DNA of 64,000 bases from Escherichia phage vB_EcoM-172859UKE1, in sequence record MZ234025.1; one strand, written 5' to 3'. Made by a program: the position numbers and the translations under genes. Numbering within the stretch: the first letter of the stretch is position 1; each line of letters opens with the position of its first letter. A model generated the notes under the pieces. It made no database searches. It was not told where the DNA came from and saw only the letters and a list, made by a program, of their open reading frames with translations. Positions 4,318 through 35,795 of the stretch are shown here, one piece after another.

Positions 4318-4611
4318 ATGAAAAAGTTATCATTGGCAGCAATCTTACTTGCAGTATCATGTGCACCGGCTCCAGTTACGGCAGGTTATGATAAAGACCT
4401 CTGTGAGTGGTCAATGACTGCAAATCAAGAAGATGTTGAACAACAAATCTTCTCTGATATCATGAACATCACTAAACGAGACCGTCCTAATATGGTTAAT
4501 AAAGTTGTTGAACAACTTAAGTCTGGCGGTAACATGCAGTACAACTATGTTTTGTATTGTGACCCTAATTTCGATAACAAAGATATCGTAACCGAAATCA
4601 CAGGTGAATAA
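4318..4611 (+). CDS. sp: Spackle periplasmic protein (superinfection exclusion)
   Basis: Signal peptide plus GYDKDLCEWSMTA...GGNMQYNYVLYCD matching T4 Sp (97 aa) as recalled. Confidence 0.85.
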   Translation: MKKLSLAAILLAVSCAPAPVTAGYDKDLCEWSMTANQEDVEQQIFSDIMNITKRDRPNMVNKVVEQLKSGGNMQYNYVLYCDPNFDNKDIVTEITGE

Positions 4612-5988: not shown

Positions 5989-7011
5989 ATGGCTGAATGG
6001 ATAGATAATGAATTTGCTTATCGCGCGTTTTCTCACCTACCTCGTTTTAGACAAATCAATAATTCAAGCACATTTAAATTAACATTTCGATGTCCAGTTT
6101 GTGGCGACTCCCAGACAGATGCAATGAAAGCTCGCGGATGGTATTATGGCGGTACTCCTGGTAATGTACATTGTTATAATTGCCAATACCACAATACAAT
6201 TTCCGGATACTTAAAAGAGTATGATGAAGAGCTTTATCGCGAATATCTAATGGAAGTTCGTAAAGAAAAAGCTAGAATGGAACCAAAGATTGAAAAGGTT
6301 CCTGAACATAAACCAGAACCGGAGAAAAAGACTATAAATTCTTTGCCGTCTTGTTCTCGTCTGGACAAGCTGCCCGAAGAGCATCCTATTGTGAAATATG
6401 TTAAGTCTCGGTGTATTCCTAAAGAATCGTGGAACAGATTATGGTTCACATTAGAATGGCCTAAATTGGTCAACAAGATTCAACCTGGTACGTATAAGAA
6501 AGAGATTCCCGAACCACGTTTAGTGATTCCTATTTTTAATAAAGACGGGAAGGCCGAGTCATTCCAAGGACGTGCACTTCGTAAAGATGCTCCTCAGAAA
6601 TATATCACTATTAAAGCGTTTGAGTCTGCAACAAAAATTTATGGTGTTGAACGTGTTAAGGAAGGAGACGTCTGGGTAATGGAAGGTCCTATTGATAGTT
6701 TATTCATACCCAATGCAATCGCTATTACAGGCGGCTCAATAGATTTAGATGTGGTACCATTTAAAGAACGTCGGGTATGGGTAATGGATAATGAACCTAG
6801 GCATCCAGATACTATAGCTCGTATGAAGCGATTAGTTGATGCAGGCGAACGTGTCATGTTCTGGGACCGAGCTCCATGGAGATCAAAGGATGTGAATGAT
6901 ATGGTAATGAAAGAAAATGCAACACCACAAGAAATTTTAGAATACATGAAACAGAATATTTCAAGTGGGTTGCATGCTAAAATGAGATTATCTCATTATT
7001 CTAAGATTTAA
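5989..7011 (+). CDS. 61: gp61 DNA primase
   Basis: Zn-finger CPVCGDS...CYNCQ near N-terminus and Toprim-like region; T4 synteny. Confidence 0.9.
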   Translation: MAEWIDNEFAYRAFSHLPRFRQINNSSTFKLTFRCPVCGDSQTDAMKARGWYYGGTPGNVHCYNCQYHNTISGYLKEYDEELYREYLMEVRKEKARMEPKIEKVPEHKPEPEKKTINSLPSCSRLDKLPEEHPIVKYVKSRCIPKESWNRLWFTLEWPKLVNKIQPGTYKKEIPEPRLVIPIFNKDGKAESFQGRALRKDAPQKYITIKAFESATKIYGVERVKEGDVWVMEGPIDSLFIPNAIAITGGSIDLDVVPFKERRVWVMDNEPRHPDTIARMKRLVDAGERVMFWDRAPWRSKDVNDMVMKENATPQEILEYMKQNISSGLHAKMRLSHYSKI

Positions 7012-7205
7012 ACAAGCCCTATAATAGCAAAGGCCAAATCGACTACAGTATCCAATGGAACAGAAGGAACTATAATACCATTAGCAACTAACAATGGTGC
7101 GATACCGAAGTTCCATGAAATAATGCCACCTACAACTATTGCGGCGATAGCAGTTTTCTTTTTATTGCCTTTAATAGCATTGATTAACGATGGAAGTTTA
7201 AACAT
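7008..7205 (-). CDS. small hydrophobic membrane protein (65 aa), antisense to the early gene block
   Basis: Consensus SD AAGGAG 5 nt upstream of ATG on minus strand; two hydrophobic segments; lies in 61-56 gap and overlaps the last 4 nt of 61. Confidence 0.45.
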   Translation of the reverse strand: MFKLPSLINAIKGNKKKTAIAAIVVGGIISWNFGIAPLLVANGIIVPSVPLDTVVDLAFAIIGLV

Positions 7206-7293
7206 AATATCTCCTTAGTTACCTATTATTTATTACGCTTTATAAAATTAATGTTAGAATTAACTCTCTTATACTGAATTGAAAGGAAAAATA

Positions 7294-7815
7294 ATGGCAC
7301 ACTTTAACGAATGTTCACAACTTATTTCTGGTGTTGATAAAGCAGAAGAAGCTTATTTTAATGCTCTGATTCACGAAGATAAAGACCCACTGCAGGTAAT
7401 GCTTGATATGCAGAAATCTTTACAGGTTCGTCTGGCAAATGACAAGCCTGAACATAACAAACATCCTGATGAATTGGCTACTGCTGGTGATGTTGTTGAT
7501 TGGCTGCGTAATCAGAAAGATTATATTGATGATGAATTCCGTGAACTGCTGACTTCACTTGGTGGTATGAGCAATGGTGAAAAAGCCGCCAGCAGTGTAT
7601 GGAAGCCGTGGAAGGCACAACATGCTGAATATCGTAATCGTCGTATCGATGAACTGTCTCCTGAAGACCAGCTTGAAATTAAATTTGAGATGATTGATAT
7701 TCTGCACTTTGTTCTGAACATGTTCCAAGGTCTTGGGCTTTCTGCTGAAGAAATCTTTAAACTTTACTACTTGAAAAACCAACACAACTTTGAACGCCAG
7801 GATAACGGTTACTAA
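7294..7815 (+). CDS. 56: gp56 dCTPase/dUTPase (MazG-like dCTP pyrophosphatase)
   Basis: MAHFNEC... start after gaaaggaaaaataATG; high similarity to T4 gp56 as recalled. Confidence 0.9.
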   Translation: MAHFNECSQLISGVDKAEEAYFNALIHEDKDPLQVMLDMQKSLQVRLANDKPEHNKHPDELATAGDVVDWLRNQKDYIDDEFRELLTSLGGMSNGEKAASSVWKPWKAQHAEYRNRRIDELSPEDQLEIKFEMIDILHFVLNMFQGLGLSAEEIFKLYYLKNQHNFERQDNGY

Positions 7816-7821
7816 TTAAGT

Positions 7822-7829
7822 TATAAATA
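7822..7829 (+). promoter_or_regulatory. Late promoter TATAAATA upstream of soc
   Basis: Exact TATAAATA about 30 nt upstream of the soc ATG. Confidence 0.6.
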
Positions 7830-7860
7830 CACCTGTAATTAAACAACAAAGGAGTTAATT

Positions 7861-8097
7861 ATGGGTGGTTACGTTAATATCAAAACCTTTACACATCCGG
7901 CTGGCGAAGGCAAAGAAGTTAAAGGTATGGAAGTTTCTGTACCGTTTGAGATTTATTCAAACGAACATCGAATTGCAGATTCCCATTACCAAATCTTTCC
8001 GTCAGAAAAGGCAGCTTATTCTGATGTCGTTTCTGATGCAGCAACTTGGAAAACTAAGAACGCTGCAATGTTTACCCCTACGCCAGTAAGCGGTTAA
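7861..8097 (+). CDS. soc: Soc small outer capsid protein
   Basis: GYVNIKTF...HYQIFPSEKAAYS matches T4 Soc as recalled; SD aaaggag. Confidence 0.8.
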   Translation: MGGYVNIKTFTHPAGEGKEVKGMEVSVPFEIYSNEHRIADSHYQIFPSEKAAYSDVVSDAATWKTKNAAMFTPTPVSG

Positions 8098-8104
8098 ATA
8101 ATTT

Positions 8105-8137
8105 AAGGAATCCTTCGGGATTCCTTTTTTTTTTTGT
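8105..8137 (+). terminator. Rho-independent terminator after soc (ggaatccTTCGggattcc + T11)
   Basis: Perfect hairpin with UUCG loop followed by long T run. Confidence 0.8.
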
Positions 8138-16502: not shown

Positions 16503-16915
16503 TGGCTAATAAATTCCGCGTTAACTCATGGTACCAATTTATAGATAAACGTGCCCAAGAAGAGTTTATTAAAGACCACACTGATAATGGGATTTATGCA
16601 CGACGTCTTGGCATGGAACCATTTAAAGTATTAGATGTTGACCATCTTGGTCGTCCTACTAAAATTGTGACATCTACTGGCACGGTTGGATACGCAACAG
16701 GCGGTGATATCCTTGATGAAAACTTTATCTGGCTCTCCACGAATGAAGCAGAGTTCTTTGACGAAGTTGAAAATCCATATCTAGCGTCCGAAGAGCAAGA
16801 TTCTGGTGAACTTGACGAATTGTCTGAATTTCCGGTGATGACGATTACTATCGAAAATAACGACCAGGCATGGTCTTTGTATCAAATGTTGAAAGCTCAC
16901 TTTAAGGAACAATAA
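16502..16915 (+). CDS. hypothetical acidic protein (137 aa)
   Basis: ATG 16502 overlaps previous stop (TAATG); ORF-track start 16484 is TTG. Confidence 0.45.
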
Positions 16916-17094
16916 TGCCGTTATACGACTATAAATGTCAATCTGAAGATTGTGGTCATGAATATGAAAAAATTAAAAGGATTTCTGAACGAGAAAACGA
17001 TGTTTGCCCTGAATGTCATCGTCTGTCTACTCGTCGGGTTTCTGCTCCTAAACATGTGAACGGTGGTTTTTACGACTTACTTAAGAAGGGTTAA
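16915..17094 (+). CDS. zinc-ribbon small protein (59 aa), FmdB-like CxxC...CPxC
   Basis: [18 protein letters not shown]...NDVCPECH; ATG overlaps previous stop (TAATG); not in ORF track (<60 aa). Confidence 0.5.
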   Translation: MPLYDYKCQSEDCGHEYEKIKRISERENDVCPECHRLSTRRVSAPKHVNGGFYDLLKKG

Positions 17095-17096
17095 TT

Positions 17097-17522
17097 ATGG
17101 CTTTTAAAGGTTTTGAAGTTGGTAAGAAATATCGTATTATCAAAGGACAGGAAGATAATTTCTTGAGAATTCTTAATACGACTGGTAAACGTCTTAATAC
17201 TAATCTGCATACTACTTTATTGTCCAAAGATTTTATTGTGGAAGAGATGATTGGTTACGGCGTTTCTGTGATTGCTGTAGAAGCCGTAGGCGATTATGGC
17301 CGAACTATTCATAGTATGCAAGGTGATATTCTGCTTTATGGTGCAGAATTTAAATTCTTTGAAGAAGTTCCGGAACCAGATACAGCTGTCGATTTCAAAA
17401 AAGGCTCTATAGAATTTGTTGATGGTTCGGTGATCGTATCAGGCGATGTGGTCATTACAGTTAAAAGTGAACAAGGGCGTTTGGCTGCAATTGATGCACT
17501 TCAGAAAATTAAATTTAAATAA
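17097..17522 (+). CDS. hypothetical protein (141 aa; position and length of T4 goF)
   Basis: ORF directly upstream of gene 39; assignment positional only. Confidence 0.4.
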   Translation: MAFKGFEVGKKYRIIKGQEDNFLRILNTTGKRLNTNLHTTLLSKDFIVEEMIGYGVSVIAVEAVGDYGRTIHSMQGDILLYGAEFKFFEEVPEPDTAVDFKKGSIEFVDGSVIVSGDVVITVKSEQGRLAAIDALQKIKFK

Positions 17523-17541
17523 GGGCTTCGGCCCTTTTTGC
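17523..17541 (+). terminator. Terminator hairpin gggcTTCGgccc + T run
   Basis: Hairpin with UUCG loop after stop. Confidence 0.6.
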
Positions 17542-17585
17542 TTTAGATTTCGGATGATAGAATACCTTCATAACGAGGAGACAAC

Positions 17586-19403
17586 ATGATTAAAAATGAA
17601 ATTAAGGTATTGTCAGATGTAGAACATATTAAGAAACGCAGTGGCATGTATATTGGTTCTTCGGCCAAAGAAGCCCACGAGCGTTTTTTGTTTGGTAAAT
17701 ATCAACAAGTTGAATATGTTCCTGGTCTGGTTAAATTAATCGATGAGATTATTGACAACTCGGTTGATGAAGCTATTCGTACATCATTTAAGTTTGCAAA
17801 TAAAATTGATGTGCAAATTAAAAATAATCAAGTTTCGGTGGAAGATAACGGACGTGGTATTCCTCAAGGTTTAGTTACCGACCAAAATGGTGAACAGATT
17901 CCTGGGCCTGTAGCAGCCTGGACTATTCCAAAGGCTGGTGGTAACTTTGGCGATGACTCTGAACGCAAGACTGGTGGTATGAACGGCGTCGGGAGTAGTT
18001 TAACTAATATCTTCTCTACGTTGTTTACAGGCATCACGTCAGATGGCGAAAATGAAATCACTGTTAACTGTTCAAACGGAATGGAAAACAAATCATGGTC
18101 TTCTAAGAAATCTAAAGGTAAAGGCACTAAAGTAATCTTCACTCCTGATTTCACTTCATTTGAAGAGCATAATTTATCTCAAATTTATTTAGATATTACT
18201 TTAGACCGACTTCAAACATTGGCAGTCGTTTATCCTGACATCAAGTTCACATTTAATGGTAAAAAGGTTGATGGTAATTTTAAACGATTTGCTAAACAAT
18301 TTGGTGAAGATAACATCATTCAAGAAAATGATAAAGTCTCTATAGCATTCACAACATCACCAGATGGCTTCCGTCATTTAACTTATGTGAATAACATCCA
18401 TACTAAAAATGGTGGTCATCATGTTGAATGCGTAATGGATGATATCTGCGAACATCTTTTGCCAGGTATTAAAAAGAAATATAAGGGTATTGAAGTCACT
18501 AAAGCTCGTGTTAAAGAATGTCTCACAATGTTGATGTTTATTAGAGACATGAGCAATATGCGTTTTGATTCTCAGACTAAAGAACGTTTAACGTCAACGT
18601 ATGGTGATATTCGTAATCATATCCAATTAGATGCTAAGAAAATTGCTCAGGCACTTCTTAAAAACGAAGCCTTGATTATGCCTATTGTTGAAGCAGCATT
18701 AGCTCGTAAATTGGCGGCAGAAAAGGCTGCGGAAACTAAAGCAGCTAAAAAGGCAACTAAAGCTAAGGTTCATAAGCATATTAAAGCTAACCAATGTGGT
18801 AAAGACGCAGATACGACATTGTTCTTAACAGAAGGTGATTCGGCAATTGGTTATCTCATTGATGTTCGTGACCGTGAACTACACGGCGGATTCCCATTAC
18901 GTGGTAAGGTGATGAATAGCTGGGGTATGTCGTATGCTGATATGATGAAGAACAAAGAGCTCTTTGATATCTGTGCTATCACAGGTCTTATTCTTGGTGA
19001 AAAGGCAGAGAATACGAACTATCGTAATATTGCAATTATGACCGATGCCGATCATGATGGTCTTGGAAGTATTTATCCGGCTTTGCTTGCTTTCTTTAGT
19101 AATTGGCCCGAATTGTTCGAACAAGGACGTATTCGCTTTGTTAAAACGCCTGTAATTATTGCACAAATTGGCAAAACTCAAAAATGGTTTTATACTGTAG
19201 CTGAGTATGAAGAAGTTAAAGATACACTGCCTAAGCATAGTATTCGATACATCAAGGGATTGGGCTCCCTTGAAAAGTCAGAATATCGTGAAATGATTCA
19301 GAATCCTGTGTACGACGTAGTTAAACTTCCTGAAAATTGGAAAGAACTCTTTGAAATGTTGTTGGGTGATGATTCAGAACTTCGTAAAGAATGGATGTCC
19401 TAA
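17586..19403 (+). CDS. 39: DNA topoisomerase II large subunit, fused 39+60 form (GyrB-like ATPase + Toprim)
   Basis: GHKL ATPase motifs plus Toprim TEGDSA in one 605-aa ORF; no gene-60 bypass gap. Confidence 0.9.
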   Translation: MIKNEIKVLSDVEHIKKRSGMYIGSSAKEAHERFLFGKYQQVEYVPGLVKLIDEIIDNSVDEAIRTSFKFANKIDVQIKNNQVSVEDNGRGIPQGLVTDQNGEQIPGPVAAWTIPKAGGNFGDDSERKTGGMNGVGSSLTNIFSTLFTGITSDGENEITVNCSNGMENKSWSSKKSKGKGTKVIFTPDFTSFEEHNLSQIYLDITLDRLQTLAVVYPDIKFTFNGKKVDGNFKRFAKQFGEDNIIQENDKVSIAFTTSPDGFRHLTYVNNIHTKNGGHHVECVMDDICEHLLPGIKKKYKGIEVTKARVKECLTMLMFIRDMSNMRFDSQTKERLTSTYGDIRNHIQLDAKKIAQALLKNEALIMPIVEAALARKLAAEKAAETKAAKKATKAKVHKHIKANQCGKDADTTLFLTEGDSAIGYLIDVRDRELHGGFPLRGKVMNSWGMSYADMMKNKELFDICAITGLILGEKAENTNYRNIAIMTDADHDGLGSIYPALLAFFSNWPELFEQGRIRFVKTPVIIAQIGKTQKWFYTVAEYEEVKDTLPKHSIRYIKGLGSLEKSEYREMIQNPVYDVVKLPENWKELFEMLLGDDSELRKEWMS

Positions 19404-30771: not shown

Positions 30772-31431
30772 TTATTTAGCCCTTCCTAGTATTCGGATCG
30801 CTTGGTTGCATATAGCCGCTAAGCGATCTTCCTCAAGTATATTACTCCCCTTATACCAATACATCGTCACAGTTCCGGCATAGATGTTATCCAAATTAAA
30901 GTATGGACAACTATACATATAAGAAAGTTCGGCAGTCTTAGATTTTGTAGGCAAAAATGCAAATTCTGATTTAGATGAGAAATGACGGCCACTTAAATGA
31001 ATTATATATTCATTGGCCGTTTTATCCACCGGGAATCCGCCAAGGGACTTTTCAGAAATTGTGCTAGGTAGTTTGCCTTCATAAGCTATAAGGTCGACAA
31101 AATAATTTAAGTTTTTAGGTCTGAAAGAATACACAGCACTAAAATCTGCACCAGATGAGATATGAACTATTTGCAGTTGTTCTAGAGCCGCAGATTCAAA
31201 ACGTAAAGCTCGTTCTTTTTGGATTATTTCAGTATAAGTATCATACTTAGCTCTTACATAATAATCCAGCAAAATACTTCCTTTGTACCATATTAGTGCC
31301 ATTAGGAACAAAAGAATAATTACCGCTACTCGAGACATTAAAACCTTTCCAGTAGCGTTATCTTTGAAAATACGATCTAGCAACCCAAATAGAATATCAC
31401 TAGGCGAAAATGATACTTTTGGTGTTGCCAT
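30772..31431 (-). CDS. t: Holin T
   Basis: FSPSDILFGLLDRIFKDNATGKVL..., single TM, 219 aa; matches T4 T as recalled. Confidence 0.9.
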   Translation of the reverse strand: MATPKVSFSPSDILFGLLDRIFKDNATGKVLMSRVAVIILLFLMALIWYKGSILLDYYVRAKYDTYTEIIQKERALRFESAALEQLQIVHISSGADFSAVYSFRPKNLNYFVDLIAYEGKLPSTISEKSLGGFPVDKTANEYIIHLSGRHFSSKSEFAFLPTKSKTAELSYMYSCPYFNLDNIYAGTVTMYWYKGSNILEEDRLAAICNQAIRILGRAK

Positions 31432-35132: not shown

Positions 35133-35795
35133 TTAATAATAGCCGAAATCTTGAACAGAATCTTTAATTACAATCTGGTCGAAACGAGGAACATGATTAG
35201 CCTCAGACGCCGGATTCTGTGAGAAAAAGTTTGGTGCTGTTAAAGTACCAGTCATGGTATCGCCTTTACGCAATACGCGGGAATTTGCGTTATCCGTAAC
35301 AATATTTATTCGTCCATCAACATAATCTTTTCTTGTGAGATCATTTGCTGCAACCGGAGCAGTAGCGTTAGAACGGACAGGACCAATTGCATAAAAACCG
35401 CCCTTAGTGCTGATATCACCAGTACGAGCGTTAATAACAACAGTTCGGTCTGCTGAACCTTGTGATGACTTAAAACCAATACCATTCCACGAAACGATGT
35501 CAATATTTGCCATATCAAAAGTAGCTGCATCACCGTTACCTGGATAAACACCACACTGTTGACTACTACCTACAGTAGGAACATGTACGCCTCCGTTAAA
35601 TCGAACAGTTGCAGCGTAAGTACCGCCATTAGCTTTAGAAACGAAATCGTTATCAGCCGCTTGTGGTTTATTATATTCTGAATAGAGTTTAAACGTTTTA
35701 TACAGGACGTCATCACCTGCTGGCATTAAAGGGAAATTACCTTGATGCCATATGACAGCACCGCCAGTTGTACTACCAGCTTTTAAATCGGCCAT
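35133..35795 (-). CDS. 36: gp36 long tail fibre distal connector
   Basis: 220 aa, T4 length and position. Confidence 0.85.

Follow-up and report, generated by a model that had tools for sequence, protein, structure and literature searches.

The locus described here lies between the genes for DNA primase (gene 61) and dCTPase (gene 56) in a stretch of 64,000 nucleotides, hereafter the window, from Escherichia phage vB_EcoM-172859UKE1 (MZ234025.1). The window is a segment of a Mosigvirus genome about 98% identical to phage JS09, and its positions 6600-7900 share 98% identity with phages TH12, HY126, and JS09. Gene 61 (5989..7011, plus strand) is identified by its match to phrog_47 (E = 5e-101) and by the JS09 annotation, and gene 56 (7294..7815, plus strand), encoding a dCTPase/NTP pyrophosphohydrolase, by its match to phrog_173 (E = 1.6e-45) and by the same annotation. 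The gap between them measures 282 bp. Its minus strand carries an ORF of 65 codons with an ATG start (7008..7205), convergent with gene 61 and divergent from gene 56, which is documented by the ORF list, a family match, and annotated relatives; its product is MFKLPSLINAIKGNKKKTAIAAIVVGGIISWNFGIAPLLVANGIIVPSVPLDTVVDLAFAIIGLV. The TAA codons of gene 61 and of the small ORF overlap by 4 nt in the palindrome TTAA (7008-7011). A Shine-Dalgarno (SD) sequence, AAGGAG (7216-7211, minus strand), is followed by 5 nt (atatt) and the ATG. Further upstream, a pattern search located a putative late promoter box, AATAAATA, at 7234-7227 on the minus strand; it would occupy -13 to -6 and ends 21 nt before the ATG. 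The minus-strand sequence 5' of the ORF is cgtAATAAATAataggtaactAAGGAGatattATG. The first-pass annotation had described the ORF, a gap of about 280 bp, an SD sequence 5 nt from the start codon, and an overlap with the last 4 nt of gene 61, all of which are present in the window.

Antisense ORFs of 60 to 100 codons are common in this AT-rich window, and the length of the small ORF by itself is weak evidence of coding. The ORF could be a chance product of an intergenic spacer, annotated by gene callers only for its length and its SD sequence. However, an ATG-initiated ORF of at least 65 codons appeared in only 131 of 20,000 shuffles (0.65%) of the 300-nt stretch containing the small gene, and in a codon-level comparison the dN/dS of its frame was far below 1 (0.05 to 0.34 in all informative pairs). 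Between the window and RB69 there are 12 synonymous and 2 non-synonymous differences (omega 0.05), and between the window and phage ESCO47 the counts are 31.5 and 17.5 (dS 1.4, omega 0.09). Omega is 0.15 between the window and T4 and 0.12 to 0.29 in Tequatrovirus pairs with more than a handful of substitutions; the comparison of T4 with SH7 gives 0.61, but from three substitutions only. Synonymous sites have reached saturation and the protein has nevertheless been preserved, which rules out conservation by a DNA or RNA element of the other strand. The ORF is not broken in close relatives, where an interruption would have spoken against a gene: tblastn matched it in 692 phage records, with at least 80% of the protein covered in 685 of them, and it is kept in seven genera, down to 20% to 30% identity with invariant residues retained. 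On the strength of the shuffles, the dN/dS values, and this conservation, the chance reading was rejected, and we regard its probability as negligible. The small ORF is a genuine gene under purifying selection, which bears out the earlier proposal of a protein-coding gene on the antisense (late) strand. The same proposal held that a strong SD sequence on such an ORF is unlikely to be chance; the composite ATAAATA-N(3-14)-RGGAG-N(3-9)-ATG occurs three times in the 64-kb window, as against 0.04 expected, in agreement with that view.

The protein matches phrog_2024, a PHROG without an assigned function, over its entire length (E = 1.4e-26, residues 1-65 on positions 1-65 of the 65-position profile). 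It is identical to JS09_0153 of phage JS09 and 97% identical to RB69ORF029w of phage RB69. The gene is annotated as a hypothetical protein in these two phages and in HY126, and the exact window protein is already in NCBI under the same label. By these matches, the small gene is a member of the phrog_2024/RB69ORF029w family, which has been catalogued already. It is not new, since hundreds of Mosigvirus and Tequatrovirus genomes list it as hypothetical, and RB69ORF029w was recorded in 2006 with one transmembrane helix (21-41) and no predicted signal peptide (Nolan et al. 2006, PMC1524935, supplement). A profile search of 5.8 billion proteins returned 118 family clusters at 90% identity, all of 41 to 74 aa, in which the named members and the contigs of about 160 to 175 kb all belong to T4-like phages. 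An exhaustive phmmer search of 1.84 billion representatives found no relatives outside the family; three weak, multi-stretch matches in long proteins were regarded as hydrophobic noise. Single-protein scans of IMG/VR recovered 7 near-identical loci. Within the 64-kb window, tblastn revealed no paralogue of the small gene elsewhere, giving chance-level matches only (E above 0.05).

At least seven Tevenvirinae genera have a late-strand ORF of 62 to 69 aa that is convergent with gene 61 and lies upstream of gene 56: Mosigvirus (the window, JS09, and RB69), Tequatrovirus (T4, AR1, SH7, teqskov, and S1P5QW), Gaprivervirus (CJ20), Kanagawavirus (Q7622), Jiaodavirus (Mineola), Dhakavirus (KIT01), and Mosugukvirus (PM2). 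The family splits into two divergent, paralogous subfamilies. Type A, with the pattern MxKLxxLIxAIKGNKK...LDTVVDLAFAxxGL, occurs in Mosigvirus, Tequatrovirus, and Gaprivervirus, and type B, with the pattern MGxIFYQIWKL...EH..., in Kanagawavirus, Dhakavirus, and Mosugukvirus, with a divergent form in Jiaodavirus. Both types stand in tandem (B followed by A, with an 8-nt overlap) in the Mosigvirus ESCO47 and in one 173-kb metagenomic contig, and in both tandem loci CATAAATA precedes the first gene only.

Phage T4 itself has an orthologue (NC_000866 17738-17938, plus strand), 66 aa long and 52% identical, with the same TTAA stop overlap with gene 61. It sits in the 309 bp between dam (16846-17625) and gene 61 (17935-18963), a stretch that is without features in both reference records, NC_000866.4 and AF158101.6. 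No NCBI accession for the exact T4 protein was found in a collection of 15 billion proteins, and the gene was called in one Pyrodigal-annotated T4 assembly. The first-pass annotation had noted that dam, which T4 carries in this gap, is absent here and that the small gene takes its place. The absence stands, as tblastn detected no Dam homologue in the 64-kb window, but the substitution does not: T4 has both genes in the 61-56 gap, and the two are not mutually exclusive. The gene order 61-ORF-56 without dam is found in AR1, SH7, teqskov, and S1P5QW, and in most Tequatrovirus. Because T4 has both genes while most Tequatrovirus have the ORF without dam, the small ORF is the ancestral occupant of the gap, and dam is an insertion between it and gene 56, specific to a T4 subgroup. 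Deletions of 1 nt and 2 nt shift the frame of the small ORF in two T4 genomes of laboratory origin, T4_ev240 and T4_583L; if they are real, T4 can dispense with the gene under laboratory conditions.

The upstream region of the small gene is as widely conserved as its frame. An ATAAATA box (NATAAATA) lies 19 to 29 nt 5' of the ATG in all 17 single-gene loci, across the 7 genera, and is followed at all orthologous loci by a GGAG-type SD sequence. The box takes the form AATAAATA in Mosigvirus, AR1-type Tequatrovirus, and Dhakavirus, GATAAATA in T4 (17709-17716) and PM2, CATAAATA in CJ20 and Mineola, and the perfect form TATAAATA in Q7622. Late promoters of T4 have TATAAATA at -13 to -6; of 50 that have been listed, 32 match it perfectly and nine carry A at -13 (Geiduschek and Kassavetis 2010, PMC2988020). 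RB69 and its relatives show little conservation of the T at -13 (Nolan et al. 2006, PMC1524935). A box of the TATAAATA type just upstream of the coding region, which marks a T4-type late gene dependent on gp55, gp33, and gp45, is thus found here, and AATAAATA with A at -13 is a normal natural variant of the T4-type late box. The first-pass annotation was right to point to a late-promoter-like sequence on the minus strand and too cautious in calling it imperfect. From the -13 to -6 rule, we infer a transcription start near 7221/7220 and a leader of about 15 to 16 nt. The small-gene box is not among the 31 late promoters predicted for RB69 by Nolan et al. (2006, PMC1524935).

Elsewhere in the window, the composite of box, SD sequence, and ATG occurs only at holin t (30772-31431, minus strand) and at the tail-fibre gene 36 (35133-35795, minus strand), so the minus strand of the window is the late strand. 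By its sequence, the small ORF has the start architecture of bona fide late genes and is probably expressed late in infection. A search of the literature found no RNA, ribosome-footprint, or peptide evidence for it in any phage. The motif WATAAATA is rarer in the window than in shuffled sequences (9 occurrences versus 16.8 expected; 9 or more in 98 of 100 shuffles), which is consistent with avoidance of spurious late promoters, although this is a weak test. On the opposite strand, a predicted middle promoter of gene 56 (7235..7260, plus strand) consists of a MotA-box-like aCGCTTTA, a spacer of 12 nt, and TAGAAT, and corresponds to the RB69 middle promoter Pm:16038 (score 21.6; Nolan et al. 2006, PMC1524935, additional file 4). 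The same adjacency, or an overlap, of the MotA-box core GCTT and the complement of the late box is seen in AR1, teqskov, CJ20, KIT01, PM2, and ESCO47. The 88 nt that separate the start codons of the small gene and gene 56 thus seem to hold a compact, back-to-back pair of a middle (gene 56) and a late promoter.

Between the small ORF and position 4500, the minus strand shows no terminator-like site, and a transcript from the late box would therefore continue into gene 61 in antisense orientation. The late promoter might accordingly serve mainly to shut off primase late in infection, through RNA that is antisense to the 3' part of gene 61 and to genes preceding it, with the ORF being secondary or incidental. 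The maintenance of the convergent, stop-overlapping layout in several genera is in line with such a role, as is the transcription of both T4 strands at different times at several sites (PMC2988020). However, the frame is under strong purifying selection with saturated synonymous sites, the SD sequence is kept everywhere, the product has invariant residues and forms two paralogous subfamilies, and the small ORFs of CJ20 and Mineola do not overlap gene 61 at all. We therefore consider antisense RNA improbable as the main function of the locus. The transcript may affect gene 61 in antisense as well, but such an effect could not account for conservation at the protein level.

The encoded protein is predicted to have a single transmembrane helix. 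In all eight orthologues compared, the most hydrophobic 19-mer lies within residues 17-46, and C-terminal 19-mers are far less favourable. The helix is marginally hydrophobic (-2.4 to +3.7 kcal/mol as a simple Hessa-scale sum). It is preceded by four to five K/R residues and followed by one or two acidic residues, with no K/R after it in seven of the eight orthologues and one in Mineola; this distribution predicts an N-in/C-out topology. AlphaFold2, run with a 41-sequence alignment, modelled helices at residues 4-11, 15-41, and 51-62 and a loop at 42-50, with a mean pLDDT of 78.5 and the best values over residues 21-50. The N-terminal 14 residues are amphipathic, and the hydrophobic moment is high over residues 48-64 as well. 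From residue 42 to 65 the protein lacks K/R and has two Asp; its last residues are AFAIIGLV. The model and these profiles suggest one transmembrane helix (about residues 18-41, N-in/C-out) and an acidic, amphipathic C-terminal helix. Of the small membrane protein with two hydrophobic segments proposed by the first-pass annotation, the membrane protein is retained, whereas the second segment is better described as this amphipathic helix.

Conservation is concentrated in and just after the membrane helix. W31, N32, P37, and G43 are invariant across the 41 sequences, P47 is conserved in 98% and A39 in 88%, and position 42 is H, Q, or N in 98%. Position 52 is acidic in 95% of the sequences, and positions 52, 53, and 56 are polar in both subfamilies. 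A mid-membrane Asn with a Pro five residues later is the type of feature that mediates helix-helix association. That W31-N32 and P37, halfway along the helix, do not vary suggests that the protein acts by helix-helix contact. Scans of Pfam and NCBIfam (E up to 10) assigned no family, a PDB sequence search with the family profile matched transmembrane segments at chance level only (E above 0.1), and Foldseek against viral models (BFVD) retrieved family members only; no characterised relative was found in any of these four collections.

Small, late, membrane-spanning proteins include the holins, and the predicted helix at about residues 18-41 qualifies the product as membrane-spanning. It could accordingly be a second holin or a pinholin whose lesions trigger lysis. 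The small gene shares its promoter-SD-ATG layout with holin t, and the family member of phage OE5505 is named 'Holin' in UniRef and BFVD. However, that name is an unsupported database label, and no holin family of Pfam or NCBIfam was matched at E up to 10. Holins typically end in a hydrophilic, highly charged C-terminal domain, whereas the C-terminus here is hydrophobic and acidic and lacks the charged, K/R-bearing tail. No endolysin or spanin gene adjoins the locus, and the phage already has holin t. With no charged tail, no family match, no linkage to lysis genes, and another holin present, the holin identity was rejected, and we judge it very unlikely.

A role in envelope protection or in conflict late in infection, distinct from lysis timing, is somewhat easier to entertain. 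Such a factor could act in superinfection exclusion, block DNA injection or lysis from without, or counter a membrane-based abortive-infection system of the host. T4-type phages use several small membrane or periplasmic proteins in this way, and Imm and Sp are encoded just upstream of gene 61 in a Mosigvirus-type genome. The two divergent subfamilies and their tandem stacking form an arms-race-like pattern. However, the known exclusion genes imm and sp are early genes on the other strand, no family library gave a match, and the strict position and low dN/dS of the small gene resemble a housekeeping gene more than a fast-evolving conflict gene. We consider this role unlikely, if less so than that of a holin.

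The interpretation that we favour, with moderate confidence, is that the small gene is a conserved late gene for a single-pass inner-membrane protein that acts by helix contacts, perhaps in controlling the envelope or the timing of lysis. At late times in infection, gp55-RNA polymerase would start at the AATAAATA box and produce a transcript with a leader of about 15 nt bearing the consensus SD sequence. The 65-aa product would then insert in the inner membrane as a single-pass helix (about residues 18-41), leaving the N-terminal amphipathic helix and the K/R cluster that follows it on the cytoplasmic side, and the (H/Q/N)-G-x-x-L-P loop and the acidic amphipathic helix (51-62) on the periplasmic side. 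W31-N32 and P37 in mid-helix would provide a helix-helix contact, either for self-association or with another membrane protein, and its target, late in infection, may be an envelope component of the phage or of the host. As to the field in which it acts, control of the envelope or of lysis timing is our preferred guess and the most probable single option, held only tentatively; the protein may instead have a late exclusion or anti-defence role, or one in membrane-associated assembly. The small gene is flanked by replication and nucleotide genes, and no feature ties it to lysis in particular. It is conceivable, though doubtful, that T4-type phages, T4 included, carry in this late membrane micro-protein, with its Asn/Trp/Pro helix and its promoter back-to-back with the gene 56 middle promoter, an unrecognised player in the control of the envelope, of lysis or lysis inhibition, or in another late membrane process.

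Beyond the existing annotation, this analysis contributes the T4 orthologue, the late-promoter box, the two subfamilies and their tandem, and the W-N...P...G motif. The locus is only mildly noteworthy, namely for its absence from the T4 reference annotation and for its conserved late-promoter and motif architecture. Since NC_000866.4 and AF158101.6 lack the gene, proteomics databases, knock-down libraries, and expression tables that use these records miss it. The conserved late box, the invariant W-N...P...G residues, and the tandem subfamilies make this uncharacterised T4 late membrane protein directly testable. A clean knock-out should be easy because the ORF overlaps gene 61 at the stop codon only, and a change of the AATAAATA box to AACAGATA would destroy the promoter.

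Several known systems share some of these features. The closest are RB69ORF029w and JS09_0153, which have the same position between genes 61 and 56, the same orientation, and the same predicted single transmembrane helix as the window gene. Holin T of T4 resembles the small gene in being late and in its TATAAATA-type box, SD sequence, and ATG spacing, and its product, like the small protein as predicted, is single-pass and N-in. However, holin T has 218 to 219 aa and a large periplasmic domain, compared with 65 aa here, and the two have no sequence similarity (tblastn matches at E above 0.05 only). Imm and Sp of T4 are likewise small inner-membrane or periplasmic phage proteins, encoded within a few kb of gene 61. 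They are products of early genes on the early strand, whereas the small gene is found on the late strand and is preceded by a late box, and they have no detectable sequence similarity to its product. The gene soc shows that a late gene can sit inside the early gene block of T4-type phages: it is small, has its own TATAAATA box (7822-7829), and lies in the same 61-56-soc-mrh region. In contrast to the small gene, which is on the opposite strand and has no terminator, soc is on the early-gene strand with a strong terminator at 8105-8126, and it encodes a soluble capsid decoration protein rather than a predicted membrane protein. In its likely mode of action, the small protein can be likened to MgrB and AcrZ, bacterial single-pass proteins of less than 70 aa that act on a larger membrane protein through contacts of their transmembrane helix. 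Contacts of this kind are typically driven by a polar residue, for instance Asn, in the middle of the membrane. MgrB and AcrZ are host proteins without known homology to the small protein, and the likeness extends to the likely mode of action only.

The small membrane protein gene has a 66-aa orthologue in T4, at 17738-17938 on the plus strand of NC_000866.4, which falls almost entirely within a 309-bp stretch that carries no annotated feature in either T4 reference record, NC_000866.4 (17626-17934; 3127-3435 in L003, the T4 locus extracted from it) or AF158101.6. The T4 orthologue has the Shine-Dalgarno sequence AAGGAGG and the late-box sequence GATAAATA at 17709-17716. No NCBI accession for the exact T4 protein was found by an exact-sequence search of a 15-billion-protein collection. 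In two laboratory-derived T4 genomes the orthologue is frameshifted (alignment A3), by a 1-nt deletion in an A-run in T4_ev240 and by a 2-nt deletion in T4_583L; these changes represent either mutations or sequencing errors.

A second, 67-aa paralogue, of the type-B subfamily, lies immediately upstream of the type-A gene and overlaps it by 8 nt in two loci, one from the Mosigvirus phage ESCO47 (1305-1508 in L006) and the other from a metagenomic contig of 173 kb (2305-2508 in L025). Since the late box CATAAATA is present only ahead of the first gene, the B-A tandem is a predicted two-gene late operon.

In the window, the small gene's late box (7227-7234, minus strand) stands back-to-back with a predicted middle promoter of gene 56 on the plus strand (7235-7260), which consists of a MotA-box-like aCGCTTTA, 12 nt, and TAGAAT. 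The RB69 promoter Pm:16038 (Nolan et al. 2006, PMC1524935) is the counterpart of this middle promoter. The GCTT/TATTTAT juxtaposition is conserved in at least six further phages from five genera. On the plus (early) strand, soc (7861-8097) has a perfect late box of its own, TATAAATA, at 7822-7829, and is followed by a hairpin (8105-8126) with a 9-bp stem and a T-run on that strand. This palindromic stem received a score on the minus strand too; the tail that follows it there is AT-rich and has no T-run. Across the whole 64-kb window, WATAAATA is rarer than in dinucleotide shuffles (9 observed versus 16.8 expected), suggesting that spurious late-promoter boxes may be avoided.

The genes upstream of sp differ between T4 and Mosigvirus. 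In Mosigvirus (JS09, L001 1-3412), imm.1 and imm are located directly upstream of sp-61.2-61.1-61, a local rearrangement relative to T4, in which imm is absent from the corresponding stretch (L003) and sp is instead preceded by 61.4, dmd, and gene 41.
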